A stretch of 64,000 bases of DNA from the NCBI GenBank assembly GCA_043805415.1, contig JAZDHZ010000034.1, forward strand, positions 101,478 to 165,477, in the 5' to 3' direction. This stretch comes from Candidatus Omnitrophota bacterium (GTDB lineage Bacteria; Omnitrophota; Gorgyraeia; B26-G9). Below, piece by piece: positions 3,960 through 21,625 of this stretch. Each line of letters starts with the position of its first letter. Position 1 is the first letter of the stretch. Under the pieces are notes generated by a model that worked only from the letters and a program-made list of their open reading frames with translations, did not search any database and was not told the DNA's origin. A program made the position numbers and the translations under genes.

Positions 3960-4424
3960 ATGCTGATGAACCTATACATTGACGGCGATGCTTTTCCCAA
4001 TAGTCTGAAGCAAATTTTATTTCGGGCGATTGAACGCTTTGCTTTGCCGACATTTGTAATCTCAAACAAGCGGATCAATATTGGAAATTCAAAGCACATA
4101 AATTATATTATTGTTGACGCTGGACCTGATGAAGCTGACCAGCGGATTGTGGAAATGGCTGAAGAAGGGGATCTGATCATTACCGCGGATATTCCTTTAG
4201 CTGACAAAGTGATAACAAAAAAAGCTTATGCCTTAGACCACCGCGGAAAGTTTTTCAGCGAGGATAATATCAAATACTATTTATCCATGCGTAATCTGAT
4301 GCAAGAGATCCGGGATAATGGGATGATGACTAAAGGCCCGGCGGCTTTTAGCCAAAAAGACGCGCATGAATTTGCTAATCAATTGAACCAATTTTTAATA
4401 GAGCAAAAACAGCTTAGGGGATAG
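3960..4424 (+). CDS. YaiI/YqxD family protein (UPF0178, DUF188)
   Basis: About 150 aa. The N-terminus LYIDGDAFPNSLKQILFRAIERF...VISNKRI matches the conserved YaiI N-terminal pattern (IWVDADACP...V.VAN). Confidence 0.65.
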   Translation: MLMNLYIDGDAFPNSLKQILFRAIERFALPTFVISNKRINIGNSKHINYIIVDAGPDEADQRIVEMAEEGDLIITADIPLADKVITKKAYALDHRGKFFSEDNIKYYLSMRNLMQEIRDNGMMTKGPAAFSQKDAHEFANQLNQFLIEQKQLRG

Positions 4425-4469
4425 AAGCTGGAAGAATAGAAATGTGCTAAGCATTGAATGTAATAATAA

Positions 4470-5399
4470 TTGAAAGGGACAAAAATGTCAGCAGAATGCG
4501 TGTATCCTCTGGACAATGAGACGCTTGAGTTATTTGCGGGAACACAGAATCCACAGGGTTTTAATCCTAATGCAGTTAAGATAAGACGGATTATGCAGAT
4601 TACCCGCGACTTGGCAAAAAAGCCTTTTGATCAGCTAAAGATTCTGGACTTAGCCTGCGGCCAGGGTGTTTATGCTATTGAAGCAGCATTGCGAGGCGCA
4701 AAGGTATTAGCCATTGATGCCAGAACTGAGCGGATGAACCAAGGAATAAAAATCGCGGAAAGTCTTAAACTTAAGAATCTTAAGTTTGAGCAGGTTGATG
4801 TCCGCGAGGTTAATCTTGCCTTAAAGGGAAGTTTTGATGTTGTGTTTTTCCTGGGGATTTTGTATCATCTTGATAAAAGCGATATATTTACTGTTTTAAA
4901 GAATATTTATGATATCTGCCAAGAGTTTATGATTATTGATACGCATATCTCCTTAAACGGAGAGCAGACAGTTGAGTATAAGGGACAGATATACTATGGT
5001 AAACAGGTGCGTGAGCATGATAATCGGGATTCAGCTGATATCCGGAGAAACAGATTATTATCTTCATTGGATAATGAAATGAGTTTCTGGTTTACCAAAC
5101 AGTCTTTATTTAAACTGCTTAATGATCTTGGGTTCACTAGTGTCTGTGAGTGCATGGTGCCGCTGGAACCGCTTAAGCCGCAAGATAGGATTTCGCTTAT
5201 TGCTTTTAAGGGAGAACCAGTAAAAATTTCCGCATATCCCTGGATCAATGGAAAAAGCGAGGATGAAATAAAGCGGATTCTCGCTGATGCGGAGGACATG
5301 TCTCGCGGGAAAAATAAAAAAACCGGGGTCAAAGGATTTATTAAATCCTTAATCAATGGGATATTGAATTGGTTTGGACTGGAGATTAGGCGGCTGTAA
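4470..5399 (+). CDS. class I SAM-dependent methyltransferase
   Basis: Motif I ILDLACGQGVYAIEAALRGAKVLAIDA plus an acidic post-motif (FDVVFFLG). Confidence 0.7.
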   Translation: MKGTKMSAECVYPLDNETLELFAGTQNPQGFNPNAVKIRRIMQITRDLAKKPFDQLKILDLACGQGVYAIEAALRGAKVLAIDARTERMNQGIKIAESLKLKNLKFEQVDVREVNLALKGSFDVVFFLGILYHLDKSDIFTVLKNIYDICQEFMIIDTHISLNGEQTVEYKGQIYYGKQVREHDNRDSADIRRNRLLSSLDNEMSFWFTKQSLFKLLNDLGFTSVCECMVPLEPLKPQDRISLIAFKGEPVKISAYPWINGKSEDEIKRILADAEDMSRGKNKKTGVKGFIKSLINGILNWFGLEIRRL

Positions 5400-5455
5400 G
5401 ATTGAATGGATCGCAACCCGCTGCAAAATAGCGTTGATCAAATATTATCTGAGCG

Positions 5456-5926
5456 GTGAGACCTTTGAGCTTGTCGGCATTTCAGAACCTTGCTCAGAAA
5501 ATCGGAATTAAAACCACGCGGCTGTGGATTAAAAAAATCAGCTATGGCAATCAGGATATATCCGCGGGAATCGACTGTTTCTGGCTTGCAGCCAAAGCTA
5601 GGAAGACGATTCTTATTTCGCCAATGGAACAGGCGCAGTTAATGTCTAGGCTTATTTCCGGGAACACGGCTTTTTCCGCTAAATCAATCGCTGTACTCAA
5701 GGAAATGATGCGAACTAAACAGACAGAACAGGGAACTGTTTATGGAAAAACCGGTTCTGGTGTAAATGAAACCGGCAGCTATGATTTGGGATGGTATGTT
5801 GGTTTTGTGGAAAACAAACAAAAAACATATGCCTTTGCTTGTCTGGTCAAAGGGGATAATCTTATGGGAAAAGACGCCAAAGAGATTGTGGAAACAGTTT
5901 TTTTCAACAAGGCTGATTATAAATAA
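5456..5926 (+). pseudogene. 5'-truncated class D (OXA-type) beta-lactamase / BlaR1-sensor-like penicillin-binding domain remnant. It keeps the C-terminal ~60% and lacks the active-site STFK and SxV motifs.
   Basis: Retains class D signature motifs YGN (KISYGNQDIS), KTG (VYGKTGSG) and WxxG (GWYVGFVE). Strong by-eye similarity to the OXA-10 C-terminal half. GTG start is immediately preceded by an in-frame stop, with only 57 nt after the upstream methyltransferase gene. Confidence 0.75.
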
Positions 5927-6156
5927 TCGCGGAAAATATTGTTTCGCTGATTTTTAATATCTGCAAATATGGAAAAAAGATGTATTTTGATTAATAATTG
6001 TTTTATTATCCTTGCCTGAAAATACCCTGGAGTTAATAAAAACAGCAAAGAACAATAAACCCAGCCATGTTTTACTCTTATAATAAACCTAATACCTTAG
6101 TCATAACTAACTAAAAATAAAAGAGTAGTGTTTATTATAAAAAGCTCGCTAGTCCA

Positions 6157-6185
6157 TTGAAAAACATTGTTTTATGTGGTATACT
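6157..6185 (+). promoter_or_regulatory. sigma70-type promoter TTGAAA-17nt-TGG-TATACT (extended -10) upstream of the glucan-enzyme operon
   Basis: Near-consensus hexamers with exact 17-nt spacer, about 70 nt upstream of the AAGGAG RBS and ATG at 6256. Confidence 0.6.
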
Positions 6186-6255
6186 TTCACGGTTTTTATA
6201 ATTTTTTATAACTCTAAATATGTCGGCTTGTTAGGTTAAGGTCAAAGGAGTAAAA

Positions 6256-9200
6256 ATGTTTTTTAGAAAAAGAAATAGTTATCGCGTTAAAATCACAACT
6301 TTTATTATTTTACAGTGTTTTATAATTATAAATAGTCAAAGTATTTTTGCCCAGGAACAGCGGATTGTTTTAAGCCGCCAGCAAACAAGTACTCTTTCTC
6401 CGCACTTAAGCATCGGAATGAACTTGATTCAAGCAATTTTTTCCGAAAAAAGTCAACAGCCGATTGCCGCATCCAATCTTCCCGGAACACTGATATCATT
6501 GCGTGATACCGGAAGTATCAAAGAATTATTAAGCGGCAAAGACGTATTTTTGAATGACCTTTGGGCTAGAAAAACCTTAGGAGTACCCACGGCAATCAGT
6601 AGCCTGCGCAGTGAAGATAATAATTTTGATTTATGGGATTGGGGAAAAGGGGACATGGGTGAATCCAGCCGCCAGCATATTTTATGGTTAGCCAAGAATG
6701 GCTTTTCCCGCTGGATGCGCTTACCTAACCGGAAAACCCGGGCTTTATTCGGAGACCCCAGCCCCTATGCTTCACGCAGCGCGTTTGCCGGGGAAGATTC
6801 GGATATTGCTGTGCCGGAAGTGGAGGAATTTATTAATTCAAAACAAGCGCAGGCTTGGTATGAGCAAAATAAAAACCGGATTAAGGATTTACATAATGCG
6901 AATAGAGTAAATGGAATGGAAGTAGCGAGATTGAAAAATGAGGCTTTGTGGCTGGCAATGGAGTATTTTAAAGAAAATCATTTAAATAAAAATACTTCGC
7001 GCGGTAAAGCTTTTGATAGTTTTTTAAATGATAAAGATAATGACTGGGTAAGTGAATACGCGGAATATATGGCCATAAGCGAATATTACTGGGATACAAA
7101 AAAAGCTGTTTTTTTTGAGATAAATGAAGATATCTGGTCAAACATCGACCAAAAATTAAAAGGCCTGGTGCATGACCTGAACGTGGCCATAAGCACTGAT
7201 AAAATTAAAGATGTCGGGCGTTTATATGAAATGATTGATGATTTTTTCGCGCAGTATTACCAGAATAGTATTGTGGCAAACGAAACCGATATCTTTAGAT
7301 TGAATATTTATCAGTCATTGCTGGACAAAATAAAACAGGGAATTTTAAAAGACCTTGTGCGGGGCAATATTAAATCGCTTGTTGAGGCAGATGAACCGGA
7401 ATGCGCGAAAATACTTTTGGATGGTTATGAGCGTTCCAAACAAGCGTTTCGCTATGATATCAAAGACGCGATTGGCCAGGAATGTATGGCTGACTGGAGA
7501 AATTGGGACAATGCCGGATTGGTGGAGCGCGATCCTATTGTTTTAGCCCAATTCCGGGAAAAACTGGAAGATAAAATATTGTTTCATAAGTACGCGCAGT
7601 TTATTTTTAATGAGCAGGAAAAAAACATGAAAGAATTTGCCAACAGCAATGGCATTGCCATAGAAGGAGATATTCCTTTTTATGTGTCAACCATAAGCTG
7701 TGAAACCTGGGTGTATAAAGATAAGATATTCCGGCTTGATCCGAAAAACCGCTATCAGCAGATGGCTGACAGCGGAGCGCCGCCAGACCAGTATGACCGC
7801 GAATACGGACAAAACTGGGGCGGGACTCCTTATTATATAAATGCGGCGTTTAAGCAATTTTTCTATAAACGCACAAAACATGAATTAAAGAACGCGGATG
7901 GTATCAGGATTGATCACTTCCGGGCGCTTAATGATTTCTGGGTAATTCCTCATGGCAAGCTTGGCCGGGACGGTAAGTTTGAAGATGGGCCAAAAGATGA
8001 ATTATTGCAGCCTTTGCTTAATCTGGCATTGGGACAGTTTAAACGTTTTTTTGCCGAAGATCTGGGCTCATATCTGGAAGGAGTCTGGGATCTGATGCGG
8101 GATAATGAAGTTAAGGGCTTTCGGGTAGCGATATTCGGCCATGGTGATGATGATGACATAGTTCATCGGCAATATTCCGGGCAGATTGCTTTTTCCGGCA
8201 CGCATGATACTCAGACCTGGTTTGGCGCTTGGAATCAATGGGATAGTGTTAAACGGAGAATATTCCTGGACAGGTTTACGCATGATGATATTCCGGAGAT
8301 TTGGCAGCGCTTAACATCTGAACAGAGAAAAGGGTTTTTAAAATACCTTAATTATTTAGTAAAGCAGTTAAAAGCAGATACAGCAAACATAAACAAACAT
8401 AGCGAGTTTCAATCTGAAAGCAAAGATTTTTTCACAGAGAATAATTTTAAAACGCAGTTGAAAAAAGTCCGCGTTATTACAAGGAGTTTGGTTGATCTTG
8501 AAGAATTGCCATTTGGCGTGCAAACCGCTGTTTTCGGAATCCTGGCTTTTTCCGAAGCAGATACAGTATTTCTGCCGATGCAGGATATATTCCGGCAGGG
8601 TGAAGAGTTTCGGATAAATGTTCCGGGCAGGCCCGGAGATTGGGGCTACCGCCATCCTTATACCGGACAGGAATTGAATAAAGCAATAAATGAAGAAATA
8701 AAAAAAGCTGATGAATTAATGCGGCTGCTGGCGCAAACTTCCGGCCGGGATGTTAGCGTGCCTTTGTACAAAAAAGGCCAAGGCGTGCATATTCTGGGTG
8801 TTTCTCCGGGTGTTAATGCCAAGAAGATGTGCAAACCAGGCGAGGAGTTTATTATCTGGGCGGCAGTACAGGGTGATAAACCAGCTAAGGTTAATCTGCT
8901 GACAAATATGCCTGAGCATAATGGCGCGTATCCTAAAGAACAGGCAGTGGCCATGGAATTAGTAAAAGAATTAAAGAGCGGAACCTATCTTTATGGAGTA
9001 AGAATAAGAGCAACACAGCCAGGCAAATGGGGAGTCGCGGTTGAGGCGGATAATGTAAGAGCCGGAGAGGTTAAGGAGAATACCAGTCTGGTTGTAAGCG
9101 CTTTGGATAAAATAGCGCCTTTGGCTAAAGAACAAGAAGCTGTGCTGCGGATCGCGGCCGGGATTTCCAAGGAAAAACTGCAAAGGATTTTAAATGAGTT

Positions 9201-11184
9201 GAATCCTGATTTGGCGCAGGCCCTGCGGCAGGCATTAAAAAATTATCAGGTAGAATATGCCGGTAATGATGAGGAAAAAATCATTAATCCCAGCGGACTG
9301 GATAAAGATTTATTATATGCGAATGTGAATTTAATCCGCGAAAAATTACTTAACCTTGATTACCAACAGTTAATCAAGGAAAATTATCCTGCTTTGAATA
9401 ATAAACTTATTGCTGAGTATATGAACAGGTCGGGATGGTATTCCGCGGCAGTGCCAAATAAAATAGCGCAGACTTTGCTTAATATCGCGGTTTTACCTGG
9501 AAATCCAGAGTCTGTTATGGAAAGTCTTACCACTATTCTTGGCCACGACAACACTATTAGCGGGGAAAAGCGGGTATTATTAGATCAGGCGTTTGCCAAT
9601 GCCGCCGCGATTGCTCATGACTCGGTATTTAGAAAAGGAGATTTGTTTGTCTTAAACAAGTTTAATGATCCTGAAGCTAATCAGAAGGTGCTGTCTTTTG
9701 CCCGGTATATGGGAAATGGCAGAAAGGCGATGGTAATCAGTAATTTCAATGACTCGCGCATTAACGGAACCCTTTTGCTCAATCAGCATAATTTTGACAA
9801 AATATTTAATATCTCCAGCACTCCAGGCAGTTATTATGCTTTGATTGACAGGGTAAGCGGAGAAATATACCTGCGTGAAGGAAAAGATTTGATCGCGCAT
9901 GGTTTGTATTTTGATCTTCCGGCTCAGTCCACGCATGTTTTTATGGTTCAGAGTTTACAGGATAATACAGCCAATGTTTTGCGGTCTAAATGTAATTATT
10001 ATAATGGCAAATCTCTGCCGCTGGAAGAAATTCTTTCGCTATTAAATAATTTTGGGCTGACTTTGGATTTTCCCTGTGTGGGAAAAACAGCGCGGGCTTT
10101 TGTTCTCCAGGGTCTTTTAAACAATGTTCCGGCAAATCAATTGATCCAGGCTTTTAAAAACAATCCGGAAATCAAGATAATCGAATTTGGGTTAAACCCG
10201 GCGGAAATCGCCGCTGAGATTAGCAAATTAGCGCAAGAGTATCAAGCTGATAAGCAAGTTCAGGCTTTATGCCAGGGCCTGCGGTTTTTAAATCAAAGAG
10301 GAGCATTAAATGAAATAAATCTTGTCCTGGTTTTAAATCAGGACAAAACATCAGTTGAGGCTGTTCAGTATTTTGATCATGGTTCAAAAAGCAGGAAAAG
10401 TTATTTGTATGTTAATTTGTCGCGGCTGAATCTGGATTCAAATAATAATTCTGAAACTAAACTTTCCGCCGCGTTAATAATCGGCGCGCGGATATCACGC
10501 CAAGGGTCGATCGCGGATTATGAATTAAGCCGAACCCTTAAAGCATTTTTAGCGCTTTGGGCGCGAGACGACGCGACTTTGCCAGGGTTAATCGACAGTG
10601 AACACAAAAGGATAAAAGGCATGTTGGAATATCTTGAAACAAATCTTAATTCAGTAATAGATGAATGGAAGCTGCCGTTTCATTATAACCTGGGACATGA
10701 TACGCTGTTAAGCCACTCTTTAAGGCGCGTAGTCATGGATTTGTTTTTAAAACAAAATACTGATAATCAAGTCAGTTTAGCCACTGTGCATAATTTTGCT
10801 TATTTCTTGGCGTATTATTTGGCTGATTCCGGACAGGCAGATAAGCTTCGCGATATTTTGCTTCAAGGATTTTCTGGAAAAAAAGCATCTTTTTATGAAC
10901 AATATTTTCTTACCAGCTTTATCTCCGGAGCACTGGTTTTAAGGGACAGCAGCATAGACGCGATTTTTATTGATTTACTGGAAAATCCTTTGCCGCAAAC
11001 GGATCTTGCCTTGCGGGAAAAAATTATAAAAACAATGTGCGGTCTAAACCGTTTTGATTTAAAATTAAACAAAATCTCAGTCAAAGAGTTGGGGGCGGTT
11101 CTCCAATCCGGCAAAGCTATTGAATCACTTCCTGAGGCAACAGTCGCGATCAGGCAGTATCAGGCGATTGGACAGGCGATTTAA
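6256..11184 (+). CDS. giant secreted protein (1642 aa): an N-terminal GH77 4-alpha-glucanotransferase (amylomaltase-type) catalytic domain fused to a C-terminal region of about 900 aa with unknown function
   Basis: Signal peptide. GH77 signatures: GDIPFYV, GAPPDQYDREYGQNWGGTPY, GIRIDHFRAL, AEDLGS and GTHDTQT. The C-terminal two-thirds has no recognisable motif. The C-terminus ends in the conserved IGQAI. Confidence 0.8.
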   Translation: MFFRKRNSYRVKITTFIILQCFIIINSQSIFAQEQRIVLSRQQTSTLSPHLSIGMNLIQAIFSEKSQQPIAASNLPGTLISLRDTGSIKELLSGKDVFLNDLWARKTLGVPTAISSLRSEDNNFDLWDWGKGDMGESSRQHILWLAKNGFSRWMRLPNRKTRALFGDPSPYASRSAFAGEDSDIAVPEVEEFINSKQAQAWYEQNKNRIKDLHNANRVNGMEVARLKNEALWLAMEYFKENHLNKNTSRGKAFDSFLNDKDNDWVSEYAEYMAISEYYWDTKKAVFFEINEDIWSNIDQKLKGLVHDLNVAISTDKIKDVGRLYEMIDDFFAQYYQNSIVANETDIFRLNIYQSLLDKIKQGILKDLVRGNIKSLVEADEPECAKILLDGYERSKQAFRYDIKDAIGQECMADWRNWDNAGLVERDPIVLAQFREKLEDKILFHKYAQFIFNEQEKNMKEFANSNGIAIEGDIPFYVSTISCETWVYKDKIFRLDPKNRYQQMADSGAPPDQYDREYGQNWGGTPYYINAAFKQFFYKRTKHELKNADGIRIDHFRALNDFWVIPHGKLGRDGKFEDGPKDELLQPLLNLALGQFKRFFAEDLGSYLEGVWDLMRDNEVKGFRVAIFGHGDDDDIVHRQYSGQIAFSGTHDTQTWFGAWNQWDSVKRRIFLDRFTHDDIPEIWQRLTSEQRKGFLKYLNYLVKQLKADTANINKHSEFQSESKDFFTENNFKTQLKKVRVITRSLVDLEELPFGVQTAVFGILAFSEADTVFLPMQDIFRQGEEFRINVPGRPGDWGYRHPYTGQELNKAINEEIKKADELMRLLAQTSGRDVSVPLYKKGQGVHILGVSPGVNAKKMCKPGEEFIIWAAVQGDKPAKVNLLTNMPEHNGAYPKEQAVAMELVKELKSGTYLYGVRIRATQPGKWGVAVEADNVRAGEVKENTSLVVSALDKIAPLAKEQEAVLRIAAGISKEKLQRILNELNPDLAQALRQALKNYQVEYAGNDEEKIINPSGLDKDLLYANVNLIREKLLNLDYQQLIKENYPALNNKLIAEYMNRSGWYSAAVPNKIAQTLLNIAVLPGNPESVMESLTTILGHDNTISGEKRVLLDQAFANAAAIAHDSVFRKGDLFVLNKFNDPEANQKVLSFARYMGNGRKAMVISNFNDSRINGTLLLNQHNFDKIFNISSTPGSYYALIDRVSGEIYLREGKDLIAHGLYFDLPAQSTHVFMVQSLQDNTANVLRSKCNYYNGKSLPLEEILSLLNNFGLTLDFPCVGKTARAFVLQGLLNNVPANQLIQAFKNNPEIKIIEFGLNPAEIAAEISKLAQEYQADKQVQALCQGLRFLNQRGALNEINLVLVLNQDKTSVEAVQYFDHGSKSRKSYLYVNLSRLNLDSNNNSETKLSAALIIGARISRQGSIADYELSRTLKAFLALWARDDATLPGLIDSEHKRIKGMLEYLETNLNSVIDEWKLPFHYNLGHDTLLSHSLRRVVMDLFLKQNTDNQVSLATVHNFAYFLAYYLADSGQADKLRDILLQGFSGKKASFYEQYFLTSFISGALVLRDSSIDAIFIDLLENPLPQTDLALREKIIKTMCGLNRFDLKLNKISVKELGAVLQSGKAIESLPEATVAIRQYQAIGQAI

Positions 11185-11185
11185 T

Positions 11186-14100
11186 ATGTCAGGAATTTTT
11201 AAAACTAAAATTTTAAATAGATTTCTCTGTCTGGTTATTTTGCAGATATTTCTTGTTTCCAATTTTTCCTGGGCCGCGGATGATTTGCGCGCGAATGATT
11301 TAGTTTATTCCAGCGCAACGCTTTCTCCTTCGCTTCAAATCAGCGCTGATGCGCTAAAACAATATTTTGCCCAATCCTTTGATTTAAAAACCGCGGCAAA
11401 TATAGATCCGGTTATAAAAGATATTTGCTTAGAGCTGTATAAGGCCAAGGATAAAACCACAAAAATAGAAGTTCTGGCCCTTGAGCAAGGCTATAGAGTA
11501 AAGATCAGGACTCAGAGCAATACGCCGCTTGTTTTACATTGGGGGTTTAATAATTGGCAAAAGCCTTTTAAGGAAATCTGGCCCCAGGCAGAGAATATCC
11601 GCACTTATTTTGATGAGCAGACCAAAGCAATGCGGACCATAGTCGAGGCTTCAGCTGAGGGAGATTATGTTTTTAATATTGATATCCCCTGGGAATTAGT
11701 TTCAGGAATAAACAATATTGATTTCACCTTCTTTTGCCCAGAAACCAAAGAATATAAGAAAGCAATTGAAAATAAGGATTATGTTGTGCCGGTTTCTAAT
11801 GTCTTGAACCTGGCCTTGGCGCGCTTGGCTGAAAATGCCGGGGCAGATGATCCTGAAAAAAAGCACGATCTGCTTAATTTGATAAACAAAAGGCTGGCTG
11901 CGGCCAAAGATTCAGCGGAAATAGATGAAAACAATATTCCTTTGTTTTATGACGCGCATGAAAATATTATTACCCAGATTGTGAAAAACAAAGCAGGAAT
12001 CAGAATTGATTTCTGGGTTGTAAGTAATGAGCCGCTGGTTTTACATTGGGGAATAAATGATTGGCAGTTGCCGCCAAAAAGCATTTGGCCGGACCGGACA
12101 TTATATAAAACCCGGGCTTATGAAAAAAAAGCAGTGCAAACTCAGATGCATTTGGCTTCTAAAGACGGTTTGTACCAGACCTCGATTTACATCCCTAACC
12201 AGAATTTAAAAGAAGTTAAAAACATCAAGTACAATGTACATTATCCAAATAATGGGTATTGGGATAATAATAATGAAGAGGATTATAGTTTATCGCTGCA
12301 AGCCCAGGATCTTATAGCCGCTTTGCTGCCTTACGCGACAGGCAGATTCGCTGCCCACATAAACGCCAAACAAGCTCGCGGCTTGTTAAAGAACATGGCG
12401 TTTTTCTACGCTGAGAATATGAATTACACTGATTTGTTAAAGCTTTTTCAGGGGATGGAAGGCATTGCCCCTGGGGATGATCTTGAAAAAAAAGATGTTT
12501 TGGGATTAATCCTTATTGCCAAATTAATGAACGAAGGCGCGGTTTGGGATAGTGACAAAGCTAAGATTATTATCAGTAAACAAAAGATCAGCGCCGCGAT
12601 AGCGGAGTTGATTGATAAACTTGACCCCTTAAGTGTGCAGTGGGCATTATATATATTCGGACTGCTTGACCCTTCCTGGGTCTCAATCCTTACGCATCAG
12701 CTTGATTATAAGCAGATATACCAGGATGTGCAAAACAGCAAGATCAAAGACCTGCCGAAATTTATCCAAGGGATAATCAACAGTTATGATGATTTGGAAG
12801 GAGCGCCGCAGGTTCTTTCCGCTGAGAGTATTGATGAAACCTGCCTGATCATAAAATTGAAATTCAATGATCAGATCATCAGTACAAAATGGGGCTATCC
12901 GACAAAACAGCAAAAGTATTATTATCAAAATGGGATTTTTGAACTAAGAGATTTCGGGGGAAATGAATTTTCGCCGGTAGGCCGTAAGCTTTCGCGTTAT
13001 GTGGATAAAGAAGTGATAAAAACCCAGATCTCCAGGCTGCGTGGCAAAGGCAAAAAGGCGATTGTTGACGGAATTTCCTGGCAGTCTCCGGAAGCGCTTA
13101 ATTCGGATAATTATATGTATTATCATCATAGTCTGCTGGAAAAAGACGCGGATGTCAGGAATTTATTGCTTTCCCGTGGTTCTTCCACGATCTTAGAACT
13201 TCCGGACGGGAAAAAAGCCTGGGTATTTCATCGGCCTGATTCATCAGATCAGCTTTCGCCTAATCTTAAATTCGGAACAAAGGCAGCGGAATACTGGAGA
13301 AATTATTGGCTGGAGTATTATAAATATTTTATCAATGAATTTGACGTGGATGGATTCAGGGTGGATTTACCCGGAGAGTTGAATCATCATGGAGATTATT
13401 CGGTATTTAAGAGTGTTTGTTTTGATATAGTGCGGTACGCGGCGGCAAAAGGCAAAAAAATATATTTTATTTTAGAAACATATCATGGGTACGCGAATAT
13501 CTGGGGCTGGGATGAGTTTTCCGCGTTAAATCATGATCCGCAGATAGCGCAATACGGCTATAAACCTTTCCGCTGTTATTATAAGCCGGTAATGACCAGT
13601 ATTTACCGCGGCAGCGCGTTTGATCTAAGAGCTGCTTTTGAACGCATAGCCGGCAGTGTTCAGGAATTGGTTATTTCAATTACTAATTTTGACGAGAAAA
13701 AAGCCGAGGATATTATTCCTGAAAAACAAAGGCTTAAGCGTTATATGGAGCTTTTGTATAATTTTGCCCGCGCGGGATTTGATGTAATGATTTATTTACG
13801 GGATTTAGGTCTGGGCGATATTTTGCCGATGTGCGGCGGAGATCGGGTTCTCTGGGGCGGAAAGCTGAGGGTTGTGGCGCATAAGCCGGCTACTCCGCGT
13901 CAGTTTCGGCAGAGATTGGAGCAAAGCACAGGCGATTTGCTTGAACAATCTCCTTTATATCAGGCGTTTAAAAAATCGCCGCAAAGCCCCTTATCGCGGC
14001 TGTTCTTCCGCGGCAATAAGTTAGTTTTTTATCAGCCGGGAAAAACTCCGGAAGTGTTTGATCTGGATAAGATGGCTAAGCCTGCTCCACCGGTAAAAGT

Positions 14101-15142
14101 TATGGACAGTGAGGAGGATATAAATATTTGGCTGCAGCAGCAGGTTTATTCATTAACAAATAATGAGCCGCAAACCCAAGCCTTAAGAGAAATTGAAAAT
14201 ACTTTAAAACGATTTAAGCATAGTGCAAGTGCAATGGCGGGAAAAGCTGTTTTGGCTCTGGTCTGTTCTGAGACTAAGAATTTCGCGGTTTGGGATCAGG
14301 CAAAAGGCCAAACTCAATGCCTGCGCATGCCGGTAAATAAAGTATTGGCCATAAAAAATGACCATGCTTTTGTTGTGGATATTAAACAAGCTGGCAAAAG
14401 CGAATCCCGCAGAATCCCGGCGCTGCAAATCAAGCAAAGCGGCAAATATTTGGCAATGGTTTTTGGCTTGGCTCCGGGTAAATACAGGTTTAATTTTTTG
14501 TGGCAGGAAAAACATGAAAACCAGGGCTGGGAAGAAGGCAATGGCTATGAGCTTGAAGTCAGTTCTCCGAAGACCGGGCAACCAGAGCTGGCGGTCTATA
14601 TCCCGCGTTTATCCGCTGAATATTTAAGGGATTGGGATGAAATGTTTTATCAGGCAAAAGATGCTGGCCGCAATCTGCTGACCGGAGATATGCTTACAAA
14701 GGGAATGCTTGAAAATATAGAATCCTCGATTGATTTTACCCTGCGTTATGAGTATGGCCGGGAGATTTTAGAACAAATTAAAGACAAAAAGAAAAAGCAG
14801 GTTTTCAATATTTTATATAATCAAATTTCGCAAAACCCGCGAGGCCGATACAGTTTACTGCATCATCACCATGAAAAAGATTTTTTTAAATTAGCGGAAA
14901 CTGTGCTTGAGAGTATCCCGGGTTTAGCAAGACCAGAGGCAGCCCCAATATGGCAATATTTGGACGCGCTCAAACAAGCGGATAATCCTGACCAAGGAGA
15001 ACAAAGCCAAATAGCCGTAAATATAAAACTGCTTGGTTTTATGTCTGGTTTGTTCGCGCAGATCGAAGCCCTGTCCGCGGCTAAACCCCTTGAGCTTTGG
15101 CTTAATATTGAAGCGGAGTTTTTGATTGGACAGGCAATATAG
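11186..15142 (+). CDS. giant secreted protein (about 1318 aa) with two tandem starch-binding-like repeats (LHWG(F/I)N(N/D)WQ motif, CBM45/CBM25-like) and a GH13-like region (DVDGFRVDLPGE, ILETYHGY); putative alpha-glucan-active enzyme
   Basis: The start is the ATG at 11186, 2 nt after the stop of the previous gene. The listed ORF start at 11120 overlaps that gene and has no RBS. Motifs were recognised by eye. The C-terminus ends in LIGQAI. Confidence 0.5.
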   Translation: MSGIFKTKILNRFLCLVILQIFLVSNFSWAADDLRANDLVYSSATLSPSLQISADALKQYFAQSFDLKTAANIDPVIKDICLELYKAKDKTTKIEVLALEQGYRVKIRTQSNTPLVLHWGFNNWQKPFKEIWPQAENIRTYFDEQTKAMRTIVEASAEGDYVFNIDIPWELVSGINNIDFTFFCPETKEYKKAIENKDYVVPVSNVLNLALARLAENAGADDPEKKHDLLNLINKRLAAAKDSAEIDENNIPLFYDAHENIITQIVKNKAGIRIDFWVVSNEPLVLHWGINDWQLPPKSIWPDRTLYKTRAYEKKAVQTQMHLASKDGLYQTSIYIPNQNLKEVKNIKYNVHYPNNGYWDNNNEEDYSLSLQAQDLIAALLPYATGRFAAHINAKQARGLLKNMAFFYAENMNYTDLLKLFQGMEGIAPGDDLEKKDVLGLILIAKLMNEGAVWDSDKAKIIISKQKISAAIAELIDKLDPLSVQWALYIFGLLDPSWVSILTHQLDYKQIYQDVQNSKIKDLPKFIQGIINSYDDLEGAPQVLSAESIDETCLIIKLKFNDQIISTKWGYPTKQQKYYYQNGIFELRDFGGNEFSPVGRKLSRYVDKEVIKTQISRLRGKGKKAIVDGISWQSPEALNSDNYMYYHHSLLEKDADVRNLLLSRGSSTILELPDGKKAWVFHRPDSSDQLSPNLKFGTKAAEYWRNYWLEYYKYFINEFDVDGFRVDLPGELNHHGDYSVFKSVCFDIVRYAAAKGKKIYFILETYHGYANIWGWDEFSALNHDPQIAQYGYKPFRCYYKPVMTSIYRGSAFDLRAAFERIAGSVQELVISITNFDEKKAEDIIPEKQRLKRYMELLYNFARAGFDVMIYLRDLGLGDILPMCGGDRVLWGGKLRVVAHKPATPRQFRQRLEQSTGDLLEQSPLYQAFKKSPQSPLSRLFFRGNKLVFYQPGKTPEVFDLDKMAKPAPPVKVMDSEEDINIWLQQQVYSLTNNEPQTQALREIENTLKRFKHSASAMAGKAVLALVCSETKNFAVWDQAKGQTQCLRMPVNKVLAIKNDHAFVVDIKQAGKSESRRIPALQIKQSGKYLAMVFGLAPGKYRFNFLWQEKHENQGWEEGNGYELEVSSPKTGQPELAVYIPRLSAEYLRDWDEMFYQAKDAGRNLLTGDMLTKGMLENIESSIDFTLRYEYGREILEQIKDKKKKQVFNILYNQISQNPRGRYSLLHHHHEKDFFKLAETVLESIPGLARPEAAPIWQYLDALKQADNPDQGEQSQIAVNIKLLGFMSGLFAQIEALSAAKPLELWLNIEAEFLIGQAI

Positions 15143-15160: not shown

Positions 15161-15937
15161 TTGCATTCCGCGCTAGAACTATTTATAATAGTAAACATGT
15201 CAAATTCTTCTGAGAAAAAACTGATTCCTTTTCCGATTTTAATCATCTCGATTTCCGTCGGGGTGCTGGGCGTGCTCCTGGCTTTTGATCTGCCGCCGGT
15301 GAGCGCTTATGAGCGGCAGCTGCTAAAAGACTTGATCCTGATCCTGCTATTTATAATCTTTTCCTATTTTATTCTGCGCGCACCAATTAAAAAAATCAGA
15401 GAAAAAATTTTTACAATCGTAAATAATAAGCTTTTTGATTCAAAGAAAATCACGGCCTTAATTCCCGAGGATTTTGCTCAGGAGATAGTCAAAGAAAAAG
15501 GATTCGCGTTTTGCTATCCAAAGACTTGGTTTCTTACCGCTGCCTGCGAACCTGGTTTGTATAAAGAAGCCAGAGAACAGCTGCTTGAGCCGGGGATCAG
15601 CGGAACAAGAAATTTTAATATTTCTTATCATGATATCCGGCTTGCTCCGGACCTGGAGAAAATGTTTAAAGCGATTATTAATGCCGTGCTCGAGGTTTTA
15701 AAATCCTCGAAGCTTGAGTTTAAGCAGAGCTTTAAGAATGATCAATTTCTCGGCATGCGCTATAAAGTAGTTTATCGAAATGCGCAAGGATTAGACTTGG
15801 CTTGCTACCAAGTGGTGCTTACAAACCAGCATAAGCGGAATATGCTGATCTTTACCTTTACTTCCCAGACAAATGATTTTGATAAATCAAAGCCTTTATT
15901 TGATAAAATCGCCGGTCTGGCAAAAATCTTCGATTAA
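15161..15937 (+). CDS. hypothetical membrane protein. The true start is possibly the ATG at 15197 (MSNSSEKK).
   Basis: Two predicted TM helices after the N-terminus; no recognisable domain. Probably co-transcribed with the upstream giant genes. Confidence 0.4.
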   Translation: MHSALELFIIVNMSNSSEKKLIPFPILIISISVGVLGVLLAFDLPPVSAYERQLLKDLILILLFIIFSYFILRAPIKKIREKIFTIVNNKLFDSKKITALIPEDFAQEIVKEKGFAFCYPKTWFLTAACEPGLYKEAREQLLEPGISGTRNFNISYHDIRLAPDLEKMFKAIINAVLEVLKSSKLEFKQSFKNDQFLGMRYKVVYRNAQGLDLACYQVVLTNQHKRNMLIFTFTSQTNDFDKSKPLFDKIAGLAKIFD

Positions 15938-16038: not shown

Positions 16039-17487
16039 ATGAAGAAAATTCTGGTTTTATTAAGCTTTTGTTTATTGGTTAATCTGAACGCGAATGCGAT
16101 TGCTTTGGCTGGCGAAGAGACAAGCACGGCTTTAGATCAAAAACAAGTGGCGATTACGATTTACAATAATAACCTGGGCTTAGTTAAAGATGTGCGGGAG
16201 ATTAAATTAAGTTCCGGCGTGCATGATCTGAAATTCATGGATGTGGCCAGTCAAATCAGGCCGGTGACAGTGAATATAAAATCATTATCCGCGCCGGATA
16301 AACTCTCTGTGCTTGAGCAGAATTATGAATATGATCTATTGAACGCGCAAAAACTTTTGGATAAATATGTGGGCAAACAGGTAAAACTATTGGATAAAAA
16401 TTATTATACCGGTAAAGAAGAAATAGTAACCGCCGAGCTTTTAAGTAATAATGGTTCGCCAATATACAAAATTAATAATGAGATCCAGGTTAATCCTTTG
16501 GGCCGGATAATTCTCCCGGAGATTCCGGATAACTTAATTGCCAAGCCCACGCTGATCTGGATGTTGAAAAACAGCAATCCCAAGCAGCAGGATATTGAAG
16601 CCTCGTATTTGACTAATGGGATTAACTGGAAGGCTGACTATATCGCGGTGATTAATCAGGATAATACAATCGCGGATTTAAGCGGCTGGGTTACGATTGA
16701 GAATAATAGCGGAGCAACATATAAAAATGCTCAGATAAAACTGGTTGCCGGAGATGTAAACCGGGTGCAGGAAGATCGGGGTTATGCTGGCCGGGCAAAG
16801 GCAAGCAGGATGATGGAACAAGACGCGGTGAAAAGCTTTGCCGAAGAAGCGTTTTTCGAATATCATTTATATACATTGCAAAGACAATCGACAATTAAAG
16901 ATAATCAAACCAAGCAGCTCGAATTATTAAAAGCAATGGATATTCCGATCAATGAAAAATTGATTTATTATGGAGCGGATTATTATTTCCGCAACCAGTA
17001 TACCGGACAGGCGCAGTCAAAGGAAAAAATCGGGGTGTTTTTGGAAATTGAAAATAAGCAGAAAAATAATTTAGGCATGCCGCTTCCGGCCGGAGTTATC
17101 CGCGCTTATAAAAAAGATAAAGAAGGCAGTCTGCAATTTATCGGAGAAGATAAAATCGATCATACTCCTAAAGATGAGAAAATCACAATTAAAATGGGCG
17201 ATGCTTTTGATGTAGTTGGAGAAAGAAAACAGCTGGAGTATCGGATTCTTTCAAAAAACGCCGCGCAGCGTTTTGATACAGAGCAGCAATGGCAGATCAA
17301 GCTGCGCAATCACAAGGAAAAACCAGTGGAAGTGGAAGTTGTTGAGCCGATTCCCGGAGACTGGCAAATAGTTAATGCTTCGGAAAAATATATTAAAACC
17401 GAAGCCAATACCATTAAATTTGTGGTAAAATTAAATAAAGATGAAGAAAAAACAATTGATTATCAAGTAAAAATCAGATACTGGTAA
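16039..17487 (+). CDS. secreted DUF4139/DUF4140-family protein (TIGR02231-like)
   Basis: AAGGAGG RBS and signal peptide. The N-terminal block VAITIYNNNLGLVKDVREIKLSSGVHDLKF resembles the DUF4140 N-terminal signature. Confidence 0.45.
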   Translation: MKKILVLLSFCLLVNLNANAIALAGEETSTALDQKQVAITIYNNNLGLVKDVREIKLSSGVHDLKFMDVASQIRPVTVNIKSLSAPDKLSVLEQNYEYDLLNAQKLLDKYVGKQVKLLDKNYYTGKEEIVTAELLSNNGSPIYKINNEIQVNPLGRIILPEIPDNLIAKPTLIWMLKNSNPKQQDIEASYLTNGINWKADYIAVINQDNTIADLSGWVTIENNSGATYKNAQIKLVAGDVNRVQEDRGYAGRAKASRMMEQDAVKSFAEEAFFEYHLYTLQRQSTIKDNQTKQLELLKAMDIPINEKLIYYGADYYFRNQYTGQAQSKEKIGVFLEIENKQKNNLGMPLPAGVIRAYKKDKEGSLQFIGEDKIDHTPKDEKITIKMGDAFDVVGERKQLEYRILSKNAAQRFDTEQQWQIKLRNHKEKPVEVEVVEPIPGDWQIVNASEKYIKTEANTIKFVVKLNKDEEKTIDYQVKIRYW

Positions 17488-17668: not shown

Positions 17669-20600
17669 ATGTATTTTAAAAAGCTCGAACTCTTTGGATT
17701 TAAATCTTTCGTTGATAAAACAACTCTTATTTTTGAACCAGGCGTAACCGCGATTGTTGGCCCCAATGGTACAGGAAAAAGTAATATTTCTGACGCGATT
17801 AAATGGGTATTGGGAGAACAAAGTGCCAAGTCTATGCGTGGGGCAAAGATGGAAGATGTTATTTTTAATGGCACAGAAACCCGCCCTCCGGTAAATATGT
17901 CAGAAGTTTCGCTGACGCTTTCTAATGAAGAAAGAGTTTTGGCGATTGATTATGATGAAGTAACTGTAACCAGAAGGCTTTATCGCTCAGGAGAAAGTGA
18001 GTATCTTCTTAATAAAACCCCGGTTAGGTTAAGAGATATAAATGAACTATTAATGGGCACTGGCATAGGCACGGAATCGTATTCTTTGCTCGAGCAGGGC
18101 CGGATTGACGCGATTATTAGTTCCAAGCCGGAAGAACGCAGAGTGGTGTTTGAAGAAGCCAGCGGCATTACCAGATATAAGAAACAAAAAAATGAGGCAA
18201 TGCGCAAGCTGCAGGCAACAGAAGAAAACCTTTTACGGGTTAATGATATAATTGTAGAGGTTAATCGTCAGTTAAATTCCATAGCGCGTCAGGTAAGTAA
18301 AGCGCGCCGCTTTCAGGAAAATTTTGATGAACTTAAAACATTAGATACGCAGTATACATACCTTCAATATAAACAGCTTAAGGAAAAAAATGATTTACTT
18401 GCCAGTGAAGAGACTGCTTTTCATGCTGAGCAGGCGGGATTAGAAAAAGAGCTTGCTGTTTTTTCTGAAGAGTTTGACGCCTTAAAAGTAACCCTTTCTG
18501 AAGTGGAACATAATTACAGTCACTTGAACAATCAATTTGTCAGGACTACTTCGCAGATTGAGCAGAATGTTCACGCTGTGTCCATTAATAATGAACGCAT
18601 CCAGGAATTCAGCCAAAGAGTGCGGGATTATAACCGCGATCTGGAAAACTCCCAAAAGAAAATCAAAGAACTGCAGGAGCAGATAAACCAACTGCAAATC
18701 CGGATTTCCGCTTTTTCCGACGAGAAAAGCGCGAAAGAACTTAATTTAAATTTACGCCAGACAACAATCGCGGAAATTGAAAACCAAATAAAACTCGCGC
18801 AAAAATCCGGAGAAGAAAACCGGATCGTGGCGGTAAAATTACTCAGTGAACACGCGCAGATTAAAAATGAACTGGCCAAGCTTTCGGCGAATATCAGCAA
18901 TGCTAACGCGCGCTTATTGCGGCTTAATCAGGAAAAAGCGAAAACTAATCAGGAACGCGAGAAGATTGACGCGGAATTAAAAAGCAAAATAGCGGAAGTT
19001 GAAAATTTAAGAGGTAAGGTTAATAAAGAAGAAGGCGACGCTCAGAATCTTAAAAATAATTATGAAGAGCTTAATACTCAGATAAAAGAGCTGGAAGTAA
19101 ATATCCAAGACAGCAAGCAAGCTTTAGTCGGCTGTAAATCCCAGCTGGAAATGCTGGAAAGATTGAGCAAGGAATACGAATGGTTTTCCAGCTCAGTGAA
19201 ATCATTTATGCTCCAAAAAGAAAACTATCCCGAAGCTTTTGCCGGAGTCCATGATGTACTGGTAAATCTTATGGAGGTAAAGCCGGGATATGAAGTTTGC
19301 GTGGAAACCGCGCTAGCCGAATACTTGCAGGCCGTTGTTGTTGATAGCCGACAAGTGGCTTTAAGGCTGAGAGAATTTCTTAATCAGCATAATATCGGCA
19401 GAATTCGGTTTATTACTCTGGATTCAATTCCGCAAATAGCTAATCAGCAGTCTCAGATTGAAAATACAAAGAATTTTTTAGAAGTAATTACCTGCGATGA
19501 TAAATACGCGAAAGTTTTAGCGTTTCTGGTTAAGAACACTTTTATTTTACAAGAAAATATTTTTGACAATCCGTCAAATCCTTTGACTAATATCAAAGAT
19601 ACGCTGAGTGCTGAGCCAGATGCTTCTGGCTTGCTTGAAGCTGAGCTTTTGTTTTCTTTTAAAACAAACGCGGCCAATAGCGTTAAAATAGTCGGCGATT
19701 TTAATCGATGGAATGCTTCTTTTGACAGTGATCTGGAACGCAAAGACACGGAGCTTTGGCAAAAGGTTCTAAAGCTCGCGCCAGGACGCTATACTTATAA
19801 GCTGGTGGTTGATGGCCAATGGATCATTGACCCGAACAATCCGCTTAAAGAAATAGATGTAAACGGACATGAAAACTCAGTTATCGAAGTGCTGGCAAAA
19901 TCCCAGGATGCTTTGGTTGCTGAGGCTGATAAGCCGGCGGCATTTGATTTTAATTTTCTGGAAACGCTGGTGAGTATGAGCGGCGAGCTGCATTCAACCG
20001 CGGGATTAATCAGCCGGCCGGTTGCTGACCAGACAACAGGCCTGTTTTATCAAAAAGCAAAAATAAGGCAGCTTAAGCAGGAAAGTGTCGGCCTGGAACA
20101 AGCCGTAGTTAAATATAAACAAGAAATCGACACTAAAATCCAGCAGCTTAAGTTTGTGGAAACAGAATTTACTCAATTAAATGATGCTTTGCACGAAGAA
20201 AAGATTAGTCTGGCGAATCGGGACTCGGAAAAATCCAGTATTGAAATAAACCGGAAAAAACTTGTGGATGAGCTTTTAGTCATTGATCTGGAAATTGATG
20301 AAACAACTCTTGATGTTCAGGAGTTTGAAGAAAAAGAAGCGGCTAAGAGAGCTAGGCTGAGCATTGTGGATCAGGAAATAGTCGGCAATGAACAGACAAT
20401 GGCAAGTAATCATCAATTGATCGGGATAAAAAACAAGGAGCGGGAAGAGCTTTTAGTTATTATCGCGGAAATGAAAACAGAATTTTCTTTGCTCAATGAA
20501 CAGGAAGAATCTTTAAATCAGAGTTTTTCAATGCTGTATAATACGCTCAAAGAATTAACCCTGAACTCGGAAGAATTTGTCCGGTATAAGGATGAGAGTA

Positions 20601-21625
20601 TAAAGCGGATCGAGGCGCTGACGATTCAGGTAAGTGAACTGAATAAATCCACGCTTGTCCTTGAGCAGGAAAAAGAAGAAATCGGCATGTCTTTAGAAGA
20701 ATTTAAAGAAAAACGCGGTCAATTATTAAGTAAATTTGAAGATATCCAGAATAAAATAAAAGAAAAAGAAAACCGATTAAATTATACCAAGAATCGGATT
20801 CGCGATATTGATGTTAAAAAAGTCGAGATGAATTTTAAAACCGAGTCATTGGTAAATTCAGCGAGGCAGGCTTATAAAATCGAACTGGAAACCCTGGAAC
20901 TTGAATTGCCGGAAGATATAGACTGGCAGGCGCGGAAAGAACAGATCGATGGTTTAAAAAATAAGATTGACCGGATTGGGGCAGTTAATCTGGCGGCAGT
21001 AGAAGAAGAGGAAGAATTAAGACAGCGCGCTGACTTTCTTAATAGTCAAAGCGAGGATTTGTTCGCGGCTAAGCAGACATTAATGCAGGCAATCCAAAAA
21101 ATCAACCGCACAACTAAAGCGCTTTTTCTCGAGACTTTTGAGAAATCAAAAATCGCTTTTAAAGAGTATTTCAAGCTTTTATTCAGCGGCGGCGACGCGC
21201 AGCTTCTGCTTACCGAGGGAAAAGATGTTTTAGAATGCGGGGTGGAAATCGTGGTGCGGCCTCCAGGCAAAAGACTGCAAAGCATAACCCTGCTTTCCGG
21301 AGGCGAGAAAACGCTTACGGCAATTGCCTTATTGTTCGCGATTTTTAAGATTAAGCCAACACCGTTTTGCGTATTAGATGAAATGGATGCCCCCTTAGAC
21401 GAATCGAATATTGATCGGTTCACCCGGGTTTTACAGGAATTTTTGAAAAGCTCACAATTCATAATTATTACCCATAATAAAAAGACTATTTCCATGGCGG
21501 ATGTTATGTATGGGGTAACAATGGAGCAGCCGGGTATTTCTCGGCTGGTGAGTGTGAAATTCAGCGAATTTAAAGACTCGGATAAATTAAAACAAGAGCT
21601 TATTCCTGAAGAAGCTATAATCTAG
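17669..21625 (+). CDS. smc: chromosome segregation protein SMC carrying an inserted AMPK-beta-type glycogen-binding (CBM48-like) module in the hinge region
   Basis: N-terminal Walker A FKSF...IVGPNGTGKSNI, long coiled coils, hinge (GVHDVLVNL...GRIRFITLDS), C-terminal LSGGEKTLTAIALLFAI...VLDEMDAPLD signature. Confidence 0.9.
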   Translation: MYFKKLELFGFKSFVDKTTLIFEPGVTAIVGPNGTGKSNISDAIKWVLGEQSAKSMRGAKMEDVIFNGTETRPPVNMSEVSLTLSNEERVLAIDYDEVTVTRRLYRSGESEYLLNKTPVRLRDINELLMGTGIGTESYSLLEQGRIDAIISSKPEERRVVFEEASGITRYKKQKNEAMRKLQATEENLLRVNDIIVEVNRQLNSIARQVSKARRFQENFDELKTLDTQYTYLQYKQLKEKNDLLASEETAFHAEQAGLEKELAVFSEEFDALKVTLSEVEHNYSHLNNQFVRTTSQIEQNVHAVSINNERIQEFSQRVRDYNRDLENSQKKIKELQEQINQLQIRISAFSDEKSAKELNLNLRQTTIAEIENQIKLAQKSGEENRIVAVKLLSEHAQIKNELAKLSANISNANARLLRLNQEKAKTNQEREKIDAELKSKIAEVENLRGKVNKEEGDAQNLKNNYEELNTQIKELEVNIQDSKQALVGCKSQLEMLERLSKEYEWFSSSVKSFMLQKENYPEAFAGVHDVLVNLMEVKPGYEVCVETALAEYLQAVVVDSRQVALRLREFLNQHNIGRIRFITLDSIPQIANQQSQIENTKNFLEVITCDDKYAKVLAFLVKNTFILQENIFDNPSNPLTNIKDTLSAEPDASGLLEAELLFSFKTNAANSVKIVGDFNRWNASFDSDLERKDTELWQKVLKLAPGRYTYKLVVDGQWIIDPNNPLKEIDVNGHENSVIEVLAKSQDALVAEADKPAAFDFNFLETLVSMSGELHSTAGLISRPVADQTTGLFYQKAKIRQLKQESVGLEQAVVKYKQEIDTKIQQLKFVETEFTQLNDALHEEKISLANRDSEKSSIEINRKKLVDELLVIDLEIDETTLDVQEFEEKEAAKRARLSIVDQEIVGNEQTMASNHQLIGIKNKEREELLVIIAEMKTEFSLLNEQEESLNQSFSMLYNTLKELTLNSEEFVRYKDESIKRIEALTIQVSELNKSTLVLEQEKEEIGMSLEEFKEKRGQLLSKFEDIQNKIKEKENRLNYTKNRIRDIDVKKVEMNFKTESLVNSARQAYKIELETLELELPEDIDWQARKEQIDGLKNKIDRIGAVNLAAVEEEEELRQRADFLNSQSEDLFAAKQTLMQAIQKINRTTKALFLETFEKSKIAFKEYFKLLFSGGDAQLLLTEGKDVLECGVEIVVRPPGKRLQSITLLSGGEKTLTAIALLFAIFKIKPTPFCVLDEMDAPLDESNIDRFTRVLQEFLKSSQFIIITHNKKTISMADVMYGVTMEQPGISRLVSVKFSEFKDSDKLKQELIPEEAII

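Follow-up and report, generated by a model that had tools for sequence, protein, structure and literature searches.

In the literature that we searched, CBM45 carbohydrate-binding modules are discussed only for the glucan, water dikinases (GWDs) of plants and algae and for the plant plastidial α-amylase AMY3, the exception being a carbohydrate-active enzyme (CAZyme) table of a clostridial metagenome-assembled genome (MAG); GWDs themselves are treated there as plant or algal enzymes. AMY3 consists of two N-terminal CBM45 modules, an α–α hairpin and a GH13 domain (PMC12458248), and the N-terminal domain of potato GWD1 (StGWD1, residues 11–129) is CBM45_1 according to CAZy (PMC13553574; bioRxiv 10.64898/2026.02.06.704335). 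Conserved tryptophan residues are important for the binding of starch by CBM45 (PMC13553574; bioRxiv 10.64898/2026.02.06.704335), and the plant modules are low-affinity binders (PMC6243121). Here, we describe a 1,318-residue protein encoded at 11186–15142 (+ strand) of a 64,000-nucleotide (nt) stretch of DNA (the window, to which coordinates refer unless another locus or protein is named) from a Candidatus Omnitrophota bacterium (contig JAZDHZ010000034.1). What is new in this protein is a CBM45-type tandem in a bacterium, joined to a histidine-less branch of the α-amylase clan (clan GH-H) that had not been annotated before. We propose, with a probability of roughly 0.6, that the gene encodes an exported multi-domain enzyme acting on α-glucans.

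The gene is a single open reading frame (ORF) that runs from an ATG at 11186 to a stop codon at 15140–15142, and its product is identical to the NCBI entry 'MAG: hypothetical protein V1747_07790 [Candidatus Omnitrophota bacterium]'. An alternative in-frame TTG start at 11120 would extend the ORF; the ATG at 11186 reproduces the deposited protein exactly. A preliminary description of this DNA, made from the letters alone, had spoken of a giant protein: the ORF is real, and 'giant' overstates a length of 1,318 residues. The motifs that it quoted are all present, at residues 116–127 (VLHWGFNNWQKP), 285–296 (VLHWGINDWQLP), 723–727 (GFRVD) and 764–769 (ETYHGY). A word-index search for homologues with the full-length protein returned V1747_07790 itself as the sole match. 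Relatives were recovered by an exhaustive HMMER search of residues 95–1140 against 1.84 billion representative proteins, which gave 50 matches: one full-length homologue (P0002, 1,797 residues, 46% identity), about 20 proteins that have residues ~430–1000 alone in common with the query, and about 30 that have only the repeat in common with it.

Tandem CBM45-type repeats

The N-terminal part of the protein contains two repeats of about 110 residues, repeat 1 (residues 95–205; 11468–11800, + strand) and repeat 2 (residues 262–372; 11969–12301, + strand), which are joined by a linker (residues 206–261; 11801–11968, + strand) whose composition suggests a helix. Pairwise BLASTP aligns the two without a gap over 91 residues, at 34% identity (E = 1e-16), a similarity far beyond chance, and the LHWG repeats noticed earlier are therefore real. 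Both fall into Pfam PF23166 (Ig_N_CWD1, the immunoglobulin (Ig)-like N-terminal domain of α-glucan water dikinase 1), which matches the protein in two stretches (E = 1.2e-16; score 61.5 bits, gathering cutoff 27 bits); the better stretch, residues 267–370 in repeat 2, spans positions 21–120 of the 121 in the profile. The profile search thus assigns the repeats to the family of the GWD1 N-terminal domain and not to an unrelated one, in agreement with the CBM45 resemblance that had been suggested from the letters. Because the N-terminal domain of GWD1 is CBM45_1, we take PF23166 to be the CBM45 fold family, an equivalence that we infer from the name of the domain and its position in GWD1.

Both repeats were aligned with 20 other CBM45-type domains from the exhaustive search, a set that includes no plant CBM45 sequence. 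Repeat 2 retains every motif of the compared domains (LHWG, W.LP, WP, AVQT and YWDNN..DY), with tryptophans at positions 288 (LHWG), 293, 301 and 359 (YWDNN), and it is the part of the protein that the roughly 30 CBM45-type proteins match. Repeat 1 keeps LHWG, W..P and WP, with W119, W124 and W132 present, and has Tyr/Lys where WDNN would stand. Given the importance ascribed to the conserved tryptophans and their retention in repeat 2, this repeat is therefore the more credible binder of the two. In StGWD1, the tryptophans needed for starch binding are W62 and W117.

A sequence search of the PDB with the repeats found no similar chain, which agrees with the statement that structural information on CBM45-family modules is lacking (PMC12458248). 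A profile of six Omnitrophota-type CBM45 repeats, searched against an index of 5.8 billion proteins, gave nothing at E ≤ 1e-3, and plant GWD1 and AMY3 were not retrieved. By analogy with the plant modules, the repeats would bind starch or another α-glucan.

A divergent clan GH-H catalytic module

The central part of the protein (residues 596–930; 12971–13975, + strand) is predicted to adopt the fold of a GH13 enzyme. An AlphaFold2 model of the catalytic module (predicted local distance difference test score (pLDDT) 86.2, predicted template modelling score 0.87) contains a (β/α)8 barrel with a domain-B-like insertion after β3, the combination expected of GH13. In the model, the strands at residues 723–726, 760–763 and 828–830 precede Asp727, Glu764 and Asp836, the arrangement found in GH13. 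Asp727, in the Arg725-Val-Asp727 segment of the GFRVD motif (13358–13366, + strand; region II, end of β4), is the candidate nucleophile; Glu764 of ILETY (13475–13477, + strand; region III, end of β5) is the candidate general acid/base; and Asp836 of TNFDE (13691–13693, + strand; region IV, after β7) is the candidate transition-state stabilizer.

Seventeen proteins of the central catalytic family, with 20–51% identity to the query, were aligned, and this alignment supports the assignments together with the model, cyclodextrin glucanotransferase (CGTase) and a bona fide GH13 comparator. Asp727 (GFRVD), Glu764 (LETY), Asp836 (NFDE), His899 and a few structural sites are invariant in the alignment; Arg725, the DQ of DQLxP(D/N)L and the Trp of VDxxxW are nearly so. 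When searched against the PDB, the family profile retrieved GH13 chains exclusively (best E = 1.2e-3), in three collinear pieces that correspond to regions I, V plus II, and IV. With hhalign, the family aligns to the comparator, a Bacteroidales GH13 protein (Pfam: CBM48 and Alpha-amylase), at 94.7% probability (E = 5.6e-8), pairing VD..W with IDLVPNH, DGFRVDLA with DGFRIDLA, LETY with GEPW and NFDE with IHDN. GFRVD aligns with GIRVD of CGTase and GFRID of a pullulanase-type GH13, Glu764 with the Glu of YGEPW in the comparator, and Asp836 with the Asp of IHD in the comparator and of NHD in CGTase. In a membership comparison, the domain was no closer to GH77 than to GH13 by sequence or by fold. 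There is thus good support both for homology to GH13 or clan GH-H and for a catalytic machinery that has been retained.

The family nevertheless departs from canonical GH13 at several points. Region I reads VDGISWQSP, in which the Trp is present in all 16 members that cover the region, and the position of the canonical His is occupied by Gln633 and varies across the family. Region IV reads TNFDE, with Phe or Tyr in place of His in 16 of the 17 members and His only in P0003 (TNHDE). Region II has no conserved His in the family either; this position is not diagnostic, because the GH13 comparator lacks it as well. Ahead of the barrel lies a family-specific extension (residues 430–595; 12473–12970, + strand), delimited by the alignment and modelled with high confidence, in which an α/β part with an S.LVHGLDY-type motif (SILTHQLDY here) is followed by a five-strand β-meander. 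This extension of about 165 residues is conserved across the family, where it carries GYPTK as well as the S(R/K)LVHGLDY-type motif, and the modelled extension remained unmatched to GH13 structures. Behind the barrel, only a three-strand sheet (residues 938–960) follows; an Ig-like sandwich comes some 85 residues further on, through a connection modelled with low confidence. PF00128 does not match the window protein even at E ≤ 1 and matches four of the 17 family members weakly (best E = 1e-4), and in NCBIfam the window protein scores only 14.5 bits for pulA_typeI, whose cutoff is 504.

Because the curated models stay below threshold, the histidines are replaced, the barrel carries a ~165-residue extension and only a three-strand sheet follows it, we do not file the domain as an ordinary GH13 member. 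We regard it as a divergent clan GH-H family, which is expected to work like a GH13 enzyme. Its earlier label of 'GH13-like' thus stands for the fold and for the conserved Asp/Glu/Asp/Arg set, and does not extend to canonical GH13 membership, as judged by the Pfam and NCBIfam thresholds and the replaced region I and IV histidines.

C-terminal regions

An eight-strand, Ig-like β-sandwich is predicted at residues ~1044–1129 (14315–14572, + strand) and has no family assignment. It comes from a second model, of residues 895–1318, which is poor overall (pLDDT 60.8), was built from 15 alignment rows of which two or three reach over the last 300 residues, and has low confidence in the tail; the sandwich itself is confident within it (local pLDDT about 80–90). 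The β-sandwich-like C-terminal segment proposed in the preliminary description thus has a predicted counterpart. The protein ends in a mostly helical tail (residues 1135–1318; 14588–15142 including the stop codon, + strand) that terminates in LIGQAI and is homologous to residues 1574–1771 of P0002 (domain E = 4.8e-40).

A conserved pairing with GH77

The gene directly upstream (6256–11184, + strand) encodes a 1,642-residue protein with a GH77 4-α-glucanotransferase domain at residues 411–801 (Pfam PF02446, E = 4.2e-77; NCBIfam malQ-type), and its stop codon sits 1 nt ahead of the ATG at 11186. The two proteins have the same type of leader and the same GQAI C-terminus; direct similarity between them is limited to the leader region (E about 0.09). 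The gene for P0002 is present in three assemblies of a second Omnitrophota lineage (loci L001–L003), each time directly downstream of a GH77 gene of 1,613–1,657 residues. As the same pair recurs at these loci while the remaining neighbours differ from those in the window, the GH77 gene and the CBM45–GH13-like gene are a conserved cassette.

GH77 also occurs within the same polypeptide as the GH13-like domain, in P0002 and in P0009, a second Omnitrophota protein described below. In P0002, an insertion of about 500 residues (~1107–1600) that contains GH77 separates the sandwich from the tail, with the Pfam GH77 match at residues 1157–1378. Locus L001, where P0002 is encoded at 6983–12376 and a separate 1,657-residue GH77 protein directly upstream at 1962–6935, accordingly has two GH77 copies, one fused and one free.

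Downstream of the gene in the window lie a small ORF of 258 residues (15161–15937, + strand), which matches no family and has hydrophobic stretches near its N-terminus, and a gene for a signal-peptide-bearing DUF4139 protein of 482 residues (16039–17487, + strand). Both are probably unrelated to the cassette, because they are not conserved beside the P0002 homologue. An antisense ORF at 14204–14581 is nested entirely in the gene and was regarded as spurious. Counts of promoter-like (+1.2 standard deviations) and terminator-like (+1.9) elements differed from shuffled sequence by less than two standard deviations.

The third gene downstream (17669–21625, + strand) encodes an SMC protein, also of 1,318 residues, in which an AMPK-β/CBM48-type glycogen-binding domain (PF16561, E = 3.4e-13; residues 667–744, about 19667–19900) sits just after the hinge (PF06470, residues 525–627), an odd place for such a module. 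The other glycosidases of the window, none of them specific for α-glucans, are a GH26-like protein (1926–2903, + strand), a GH116 protein of the β-glucosidase 2 type (43626–45791, + strand) and a GH10/GH39-like 'catalytic core' protein (51738–52823, + strand).

Leader and terminal signature

The first 30 residues (11186–11275, + strand) form a leader with a basic n-region, a hydrophobic core and an S-W-A sequence before AADD. The hydrophobic segment covers residues 9–31, and residues 13–31 are the only strongly hydrophobic 19-residue window of the protein (mean Kyte–Doolittle value 2.0). The leader is probably a Sec signal peptide and possibly a signal anchor, so that the 1,318-residue protein would be exported. 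Long Omnitrophota proteins mostly bear signal peptides or transmembrane anchors (10.64898/2026.06.07.730766).

The leader is followed by a TLSPSLQI motif (residues 45–52; 11318–11341, + strand). Scanning 35 ORFs of the window with the expression [STF][LIF][SA]P.[LIVA].[LIV] gave matches in six, always within residues 36–54 and nowhere else, and all six end in -[QEHN][AS]I. These six large ORFs (6256–11184, 11186–15142, 29258–32560, 32582–41542, 48991–51357 and 53147–55489) combine a hydrophobic leader, often with FAWA or FSWA, a motif of the form [ST][LI][SA]P.[LIVA].[LIV] and the C-terminal sequence, which reads GQAI, GQAI, GQSI, EQAI, EHSI and LNSI. In a seventh ORF (41723–43429), the motif occurs as a variant and the C-terminus is QEAI; P0002 has TLSPALQI and the C-terminus EQAV. 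In combination, leader, motif and C-terminus look like a lineage-specific sorting or secretion signature. A term search found no description of it in 10.1101/2023.11.21.568195 or 10.64898/2026.06.07.730766.

Distribution of the two modules

Members of the divergent clan GH-H family were found in MAGs of Omnitrophota, Endomicrobiales, Firestonebacteria and Gracilibacteria, and relatives of the catalytic domain occur in proteins of 3,500–5,400 residues. In the last three of these groups, its neighbours in the chain are GGDEF, kinase, methyltransferase or PP2C domains. A scan of one genome per GTDB species with a single peptide pattern yielded at least one true relative, in the genome that carries P0002; the remaining matches were ordinary Bacteroidota GH13 genes, hit in regions II–III, one of which served as the GH13 comparator above.

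P0009 (NCBI MFH1245304.1), a partial protein of 3,517 residues from a Candidatus Omnitrophota MAG, contains in order GH77 (residues 68–810), a CBM45-type module (843–948), a dual-specificity phosphatase (1073–1189), the GH13-like domain (1222–1750) and a peptidase S41 domain (3088–3251). The phosphatase loop reads HCRAGIGRTG, a C-x-A-G-x-G-R loop that we take to fit the glucan-phosphatase signature of SEX4, LSF2 and laforin. The best PDB matches of this domain by sequence are generic dual-specificity phosphatases, and P0009 is a possible bacterial CBM-linked glucan phosphatase.

The CBM45-type modules extend further. Complete GWD-like proteins occur in metagenomes and bacterial MAGs (the P0023 cluster, P0029, P0032, P0039 and P0041), with two CBM45-type domains (PF23166, E = 1.2e-48), a GWD1_pHisD phosphohistidine domain and PPDK_N; members of the P0023 cluster (1,166 residues) come from Desulfobulbaceae and Deltaproteobacteria MAGs. 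Four other proteins (P0017, 1,212 residues; P0037, 1,130 residues; P0036, 816 residues; and P0042) carry two to three C-terminal CBM45-type modules; several of them have a type IX secretion sorting domain (PF18962) at the C-terminus, and Pfam finds GH57 only in P0037 and P0036. The architecture had been called unusual for a bacterium, which is true of the literature searched but not of metagenomic sequence space: because CBM45-type modules also occur on GWD-like and GH57 proteins of other uncultivated bacteria, the tandem is unusual but not unique.

Proposed mechanism and alternatives

In the mechanism that we favour, the Sec-type leader would carry the 1,318-residue protein out of the cytoplasm, and the two CBM45-type modules, repeat 2 being the better preserved, would dock it on the surface of an α-1,4-glucan, for example starch-like granules or glycogen. 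As in their plant analogues, docking would be of low affinity and reversible. The divergent clan GH-H barrel would then cleave or transfer α-glucosidic bonds by a retaining double-displacement mechanism, with Asp727 acting as the nucleophile, Glu764 as the acid/base, and Asp836 and Arg725 as transition-state stabilizers; the GH77 4-α-glucanotransferase encoded 1 nt upstream, probably on the same transcript, would disproportionate the released chains. The homology of the repeats and of the barrel, the predicted fold, the conserved catalytic residues and the recurrent pairing and fusion with GH77 are what the analysis shows; export, starch binding, catalysis, bond specificity and the balance between hydrolysis and transfer we infer.

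Several observations weigh against this proposal. On the catalytic side, no curated Pfam or NCBIfam amylase model reaches its threshold for the window protein, and Gln633 and Phe835 replace the histidines of regions I and IV, which in canonical GH13 enzymes contact the glucose at subsite −1; the domain could therefore be inactive, or could differ from classical amylases in its substrate or reaction. In other members of the catalytic family, moreover, the fusion partners are kinase, methyltransferase, PP2C and GGDEF domains and not glucan enzymes. Were the domain a glucanotransferase (chain-transferring, maltosyl-transferring, cyclizing or branching) and not a hydrolase, the cassette would remodel rather than degrade α-glucan, which we consider unlikely. 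It is quite improbable that the domain is a pseudo-enzyme, serving as a scaffold or for binding, and the protein an α-glucan-binding adaptor that recruits its GH77 partner: from Omnitrophota to Gracilibacteria, at 20–30% identity, the three acidic residues never vary and the Arg hardly does, which is hard to explain without selection for catalysis.

With regard to binding, repeat 1 lacks the WDNN tryptophan, having EYKKAIENKDY in its place, and the closest homologue, P0002, has lost this tryptophan from both repeats. Such losses, and the low affinity of the plant CBM45s themselves (PMC6243121), would suit repeats of CBM45 ancestry that serve as mere Ig-like spacers and do not bind α-glucan. 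We find this doubtful, since repeat 2 retains all the conserved aromatic and motif positions and every bacterial context found is an α-glucan enzyme (GWD-like, GH57, GH77 or GH13-like). Export, for its part, is not secure, because the signature of leader, motif and C-terminus is also borne by a 2,986-residue protein (32582–41542, + strand) with cNMP (cyclic nucleotide)-binding, UPF0489 and, weakly, GGDEF domains. Domains of the cNMP-binding and GGDEF types normally act in the cytoplasm. The leader might accordingly remain uncleaved as an anchor, or serve as a lineage-specific sorting tag, on an enzyme that acts on the cell's own cytoplasmic storage glucan, and the glycogen-binding insertion of the SMC protein hints that such a glucan is prominent in the cytoplasm. 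However, the leader's basic n-region, 18-residue hydrophobic core and small-x-small site are what a Sec signal that is cleaved typically has, and even a single N-terminal anchor with its positive charges inside would leave the bulk of the protein outside the membrane. An intracellular enzyme thus seems to us an unlikely outcome, and an exported enzyme acting on α-glucans remains the reading that we prefer.

Implications

The plant-like CBM45 module is not confined to plants: it is found on glucan-active enzymes of uncultivated bacteria. Its known range is wider as a result, and where it originated becomes a question. The catalytic domain, for its part, marks out a family that escapes the present Pfam and NCBIfam models; in NCBI records V1747_07790 is named 'hypothetical', and its relatives are named solely for their other domains. 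Because the Asp/Glu/Asp machinery is kept while the histidines of subsite −1 are replaced, the domain is a candidate new family or subfamily of clan GH-H, whose substrate or reaction may be altered. Its conserved pairing and fusion with GH77, joined in one case by a dual-specificity phosphatase, suggest a system of two or three enzymes. At 1,318 residues, the protein is also a small and tractable starting point for learning what the long multi-domain proteins of Omnitrophota do.

A broader reading, which we offer as speculative and rather unlikely, is that Omnitrophota, and possibly other uncultivated bacteria, possess a starch-degradation toolkit parallel to that of plastids and carried on exported multi-domain proteins, with CBM45-tagged amylase-like enzymes of a so far unrecognized clan GH-H family, disproportionating GH77 enzymes and the CBM45-linked phosphatase of P0009 as its parts. 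If so, neither CBM45 nor reversible glucan phosphorylation would have been invented by plants or algae, and these nanobacteria would be equipped to attack or manage semi-crystalline, possibly phosphorylated α-glucan, for example in the stores of hosts or prey. The protein should interest CAZyme and starch specialists in any case, and more so if the toolkit reading, with P0009 and the bacterial GWDs, proves true.

Comparison with known systems

AMY3 is the closest described architecture, having the same order of parts: two CBM45-type modules, a linker and a catalytic domain with the α-amylase fold. The Omnitrophota protein differs in the ~165-residue N-terminal extension of its catalytic module, in its Ig-like sandwich and helical tail, and in bearing a bacterial leader where AMY3 has a transit peptide; its repeats lie about 170 residues apart with a linker between them, and do not form an interlocked 'duplex'. 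With the GWD1-type dikinases it has in common membership of PF23166, tandem copies of the module and the LHWG, W..P, WP, AVQTP and WDNN motifs. In contrast to these enzymes, its repeats are joined to a glycosidase-fold domain rather than to a dikinase, the second conserved Trp is missing from repeat 1, and the nearest sequence relatives of the repeats are bacterial or metagenomic, not plant.

Compared with GH13 enzymes such as the α-amylase of L. plantarum (3dhu), GlgE (3zss), AmyB of T. neapolitana (4gkl) and the pullulanase-type enzymes, the catalytic domain has a similar predicted barrel and domain-B-like insertion, the Arg-x-Asp, Glu and Asp positions after β4, β5 and β7, and recognizable regions I, II, III, IV, V (DQLxPD/NL), VI (GNxFSP) and VII. 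It differs from them in its low identity to solved GH13 structures (7–16%), in the region I Trp, the absence of a conserved region I His and the Phe or Tyr in place of the region IV His, in apparently having no canonical domain C right behind the barrel, and in falling below the Pfam and NCBIfam thresholds. Amylase, glucanotransferase, starch and CBM were not mentioned, on a term search, in 10.1101/2023.11.21.568195 or 10.64898/2026.06.07.730766, which describe the long multi-domain proteins of Omnitrophota. The protein resembles these in phylum, in its N-terminal signal or anchor and in its mixture of enzymatic modules; unlike them, it is shorter and coherently devoted to α-glucan.

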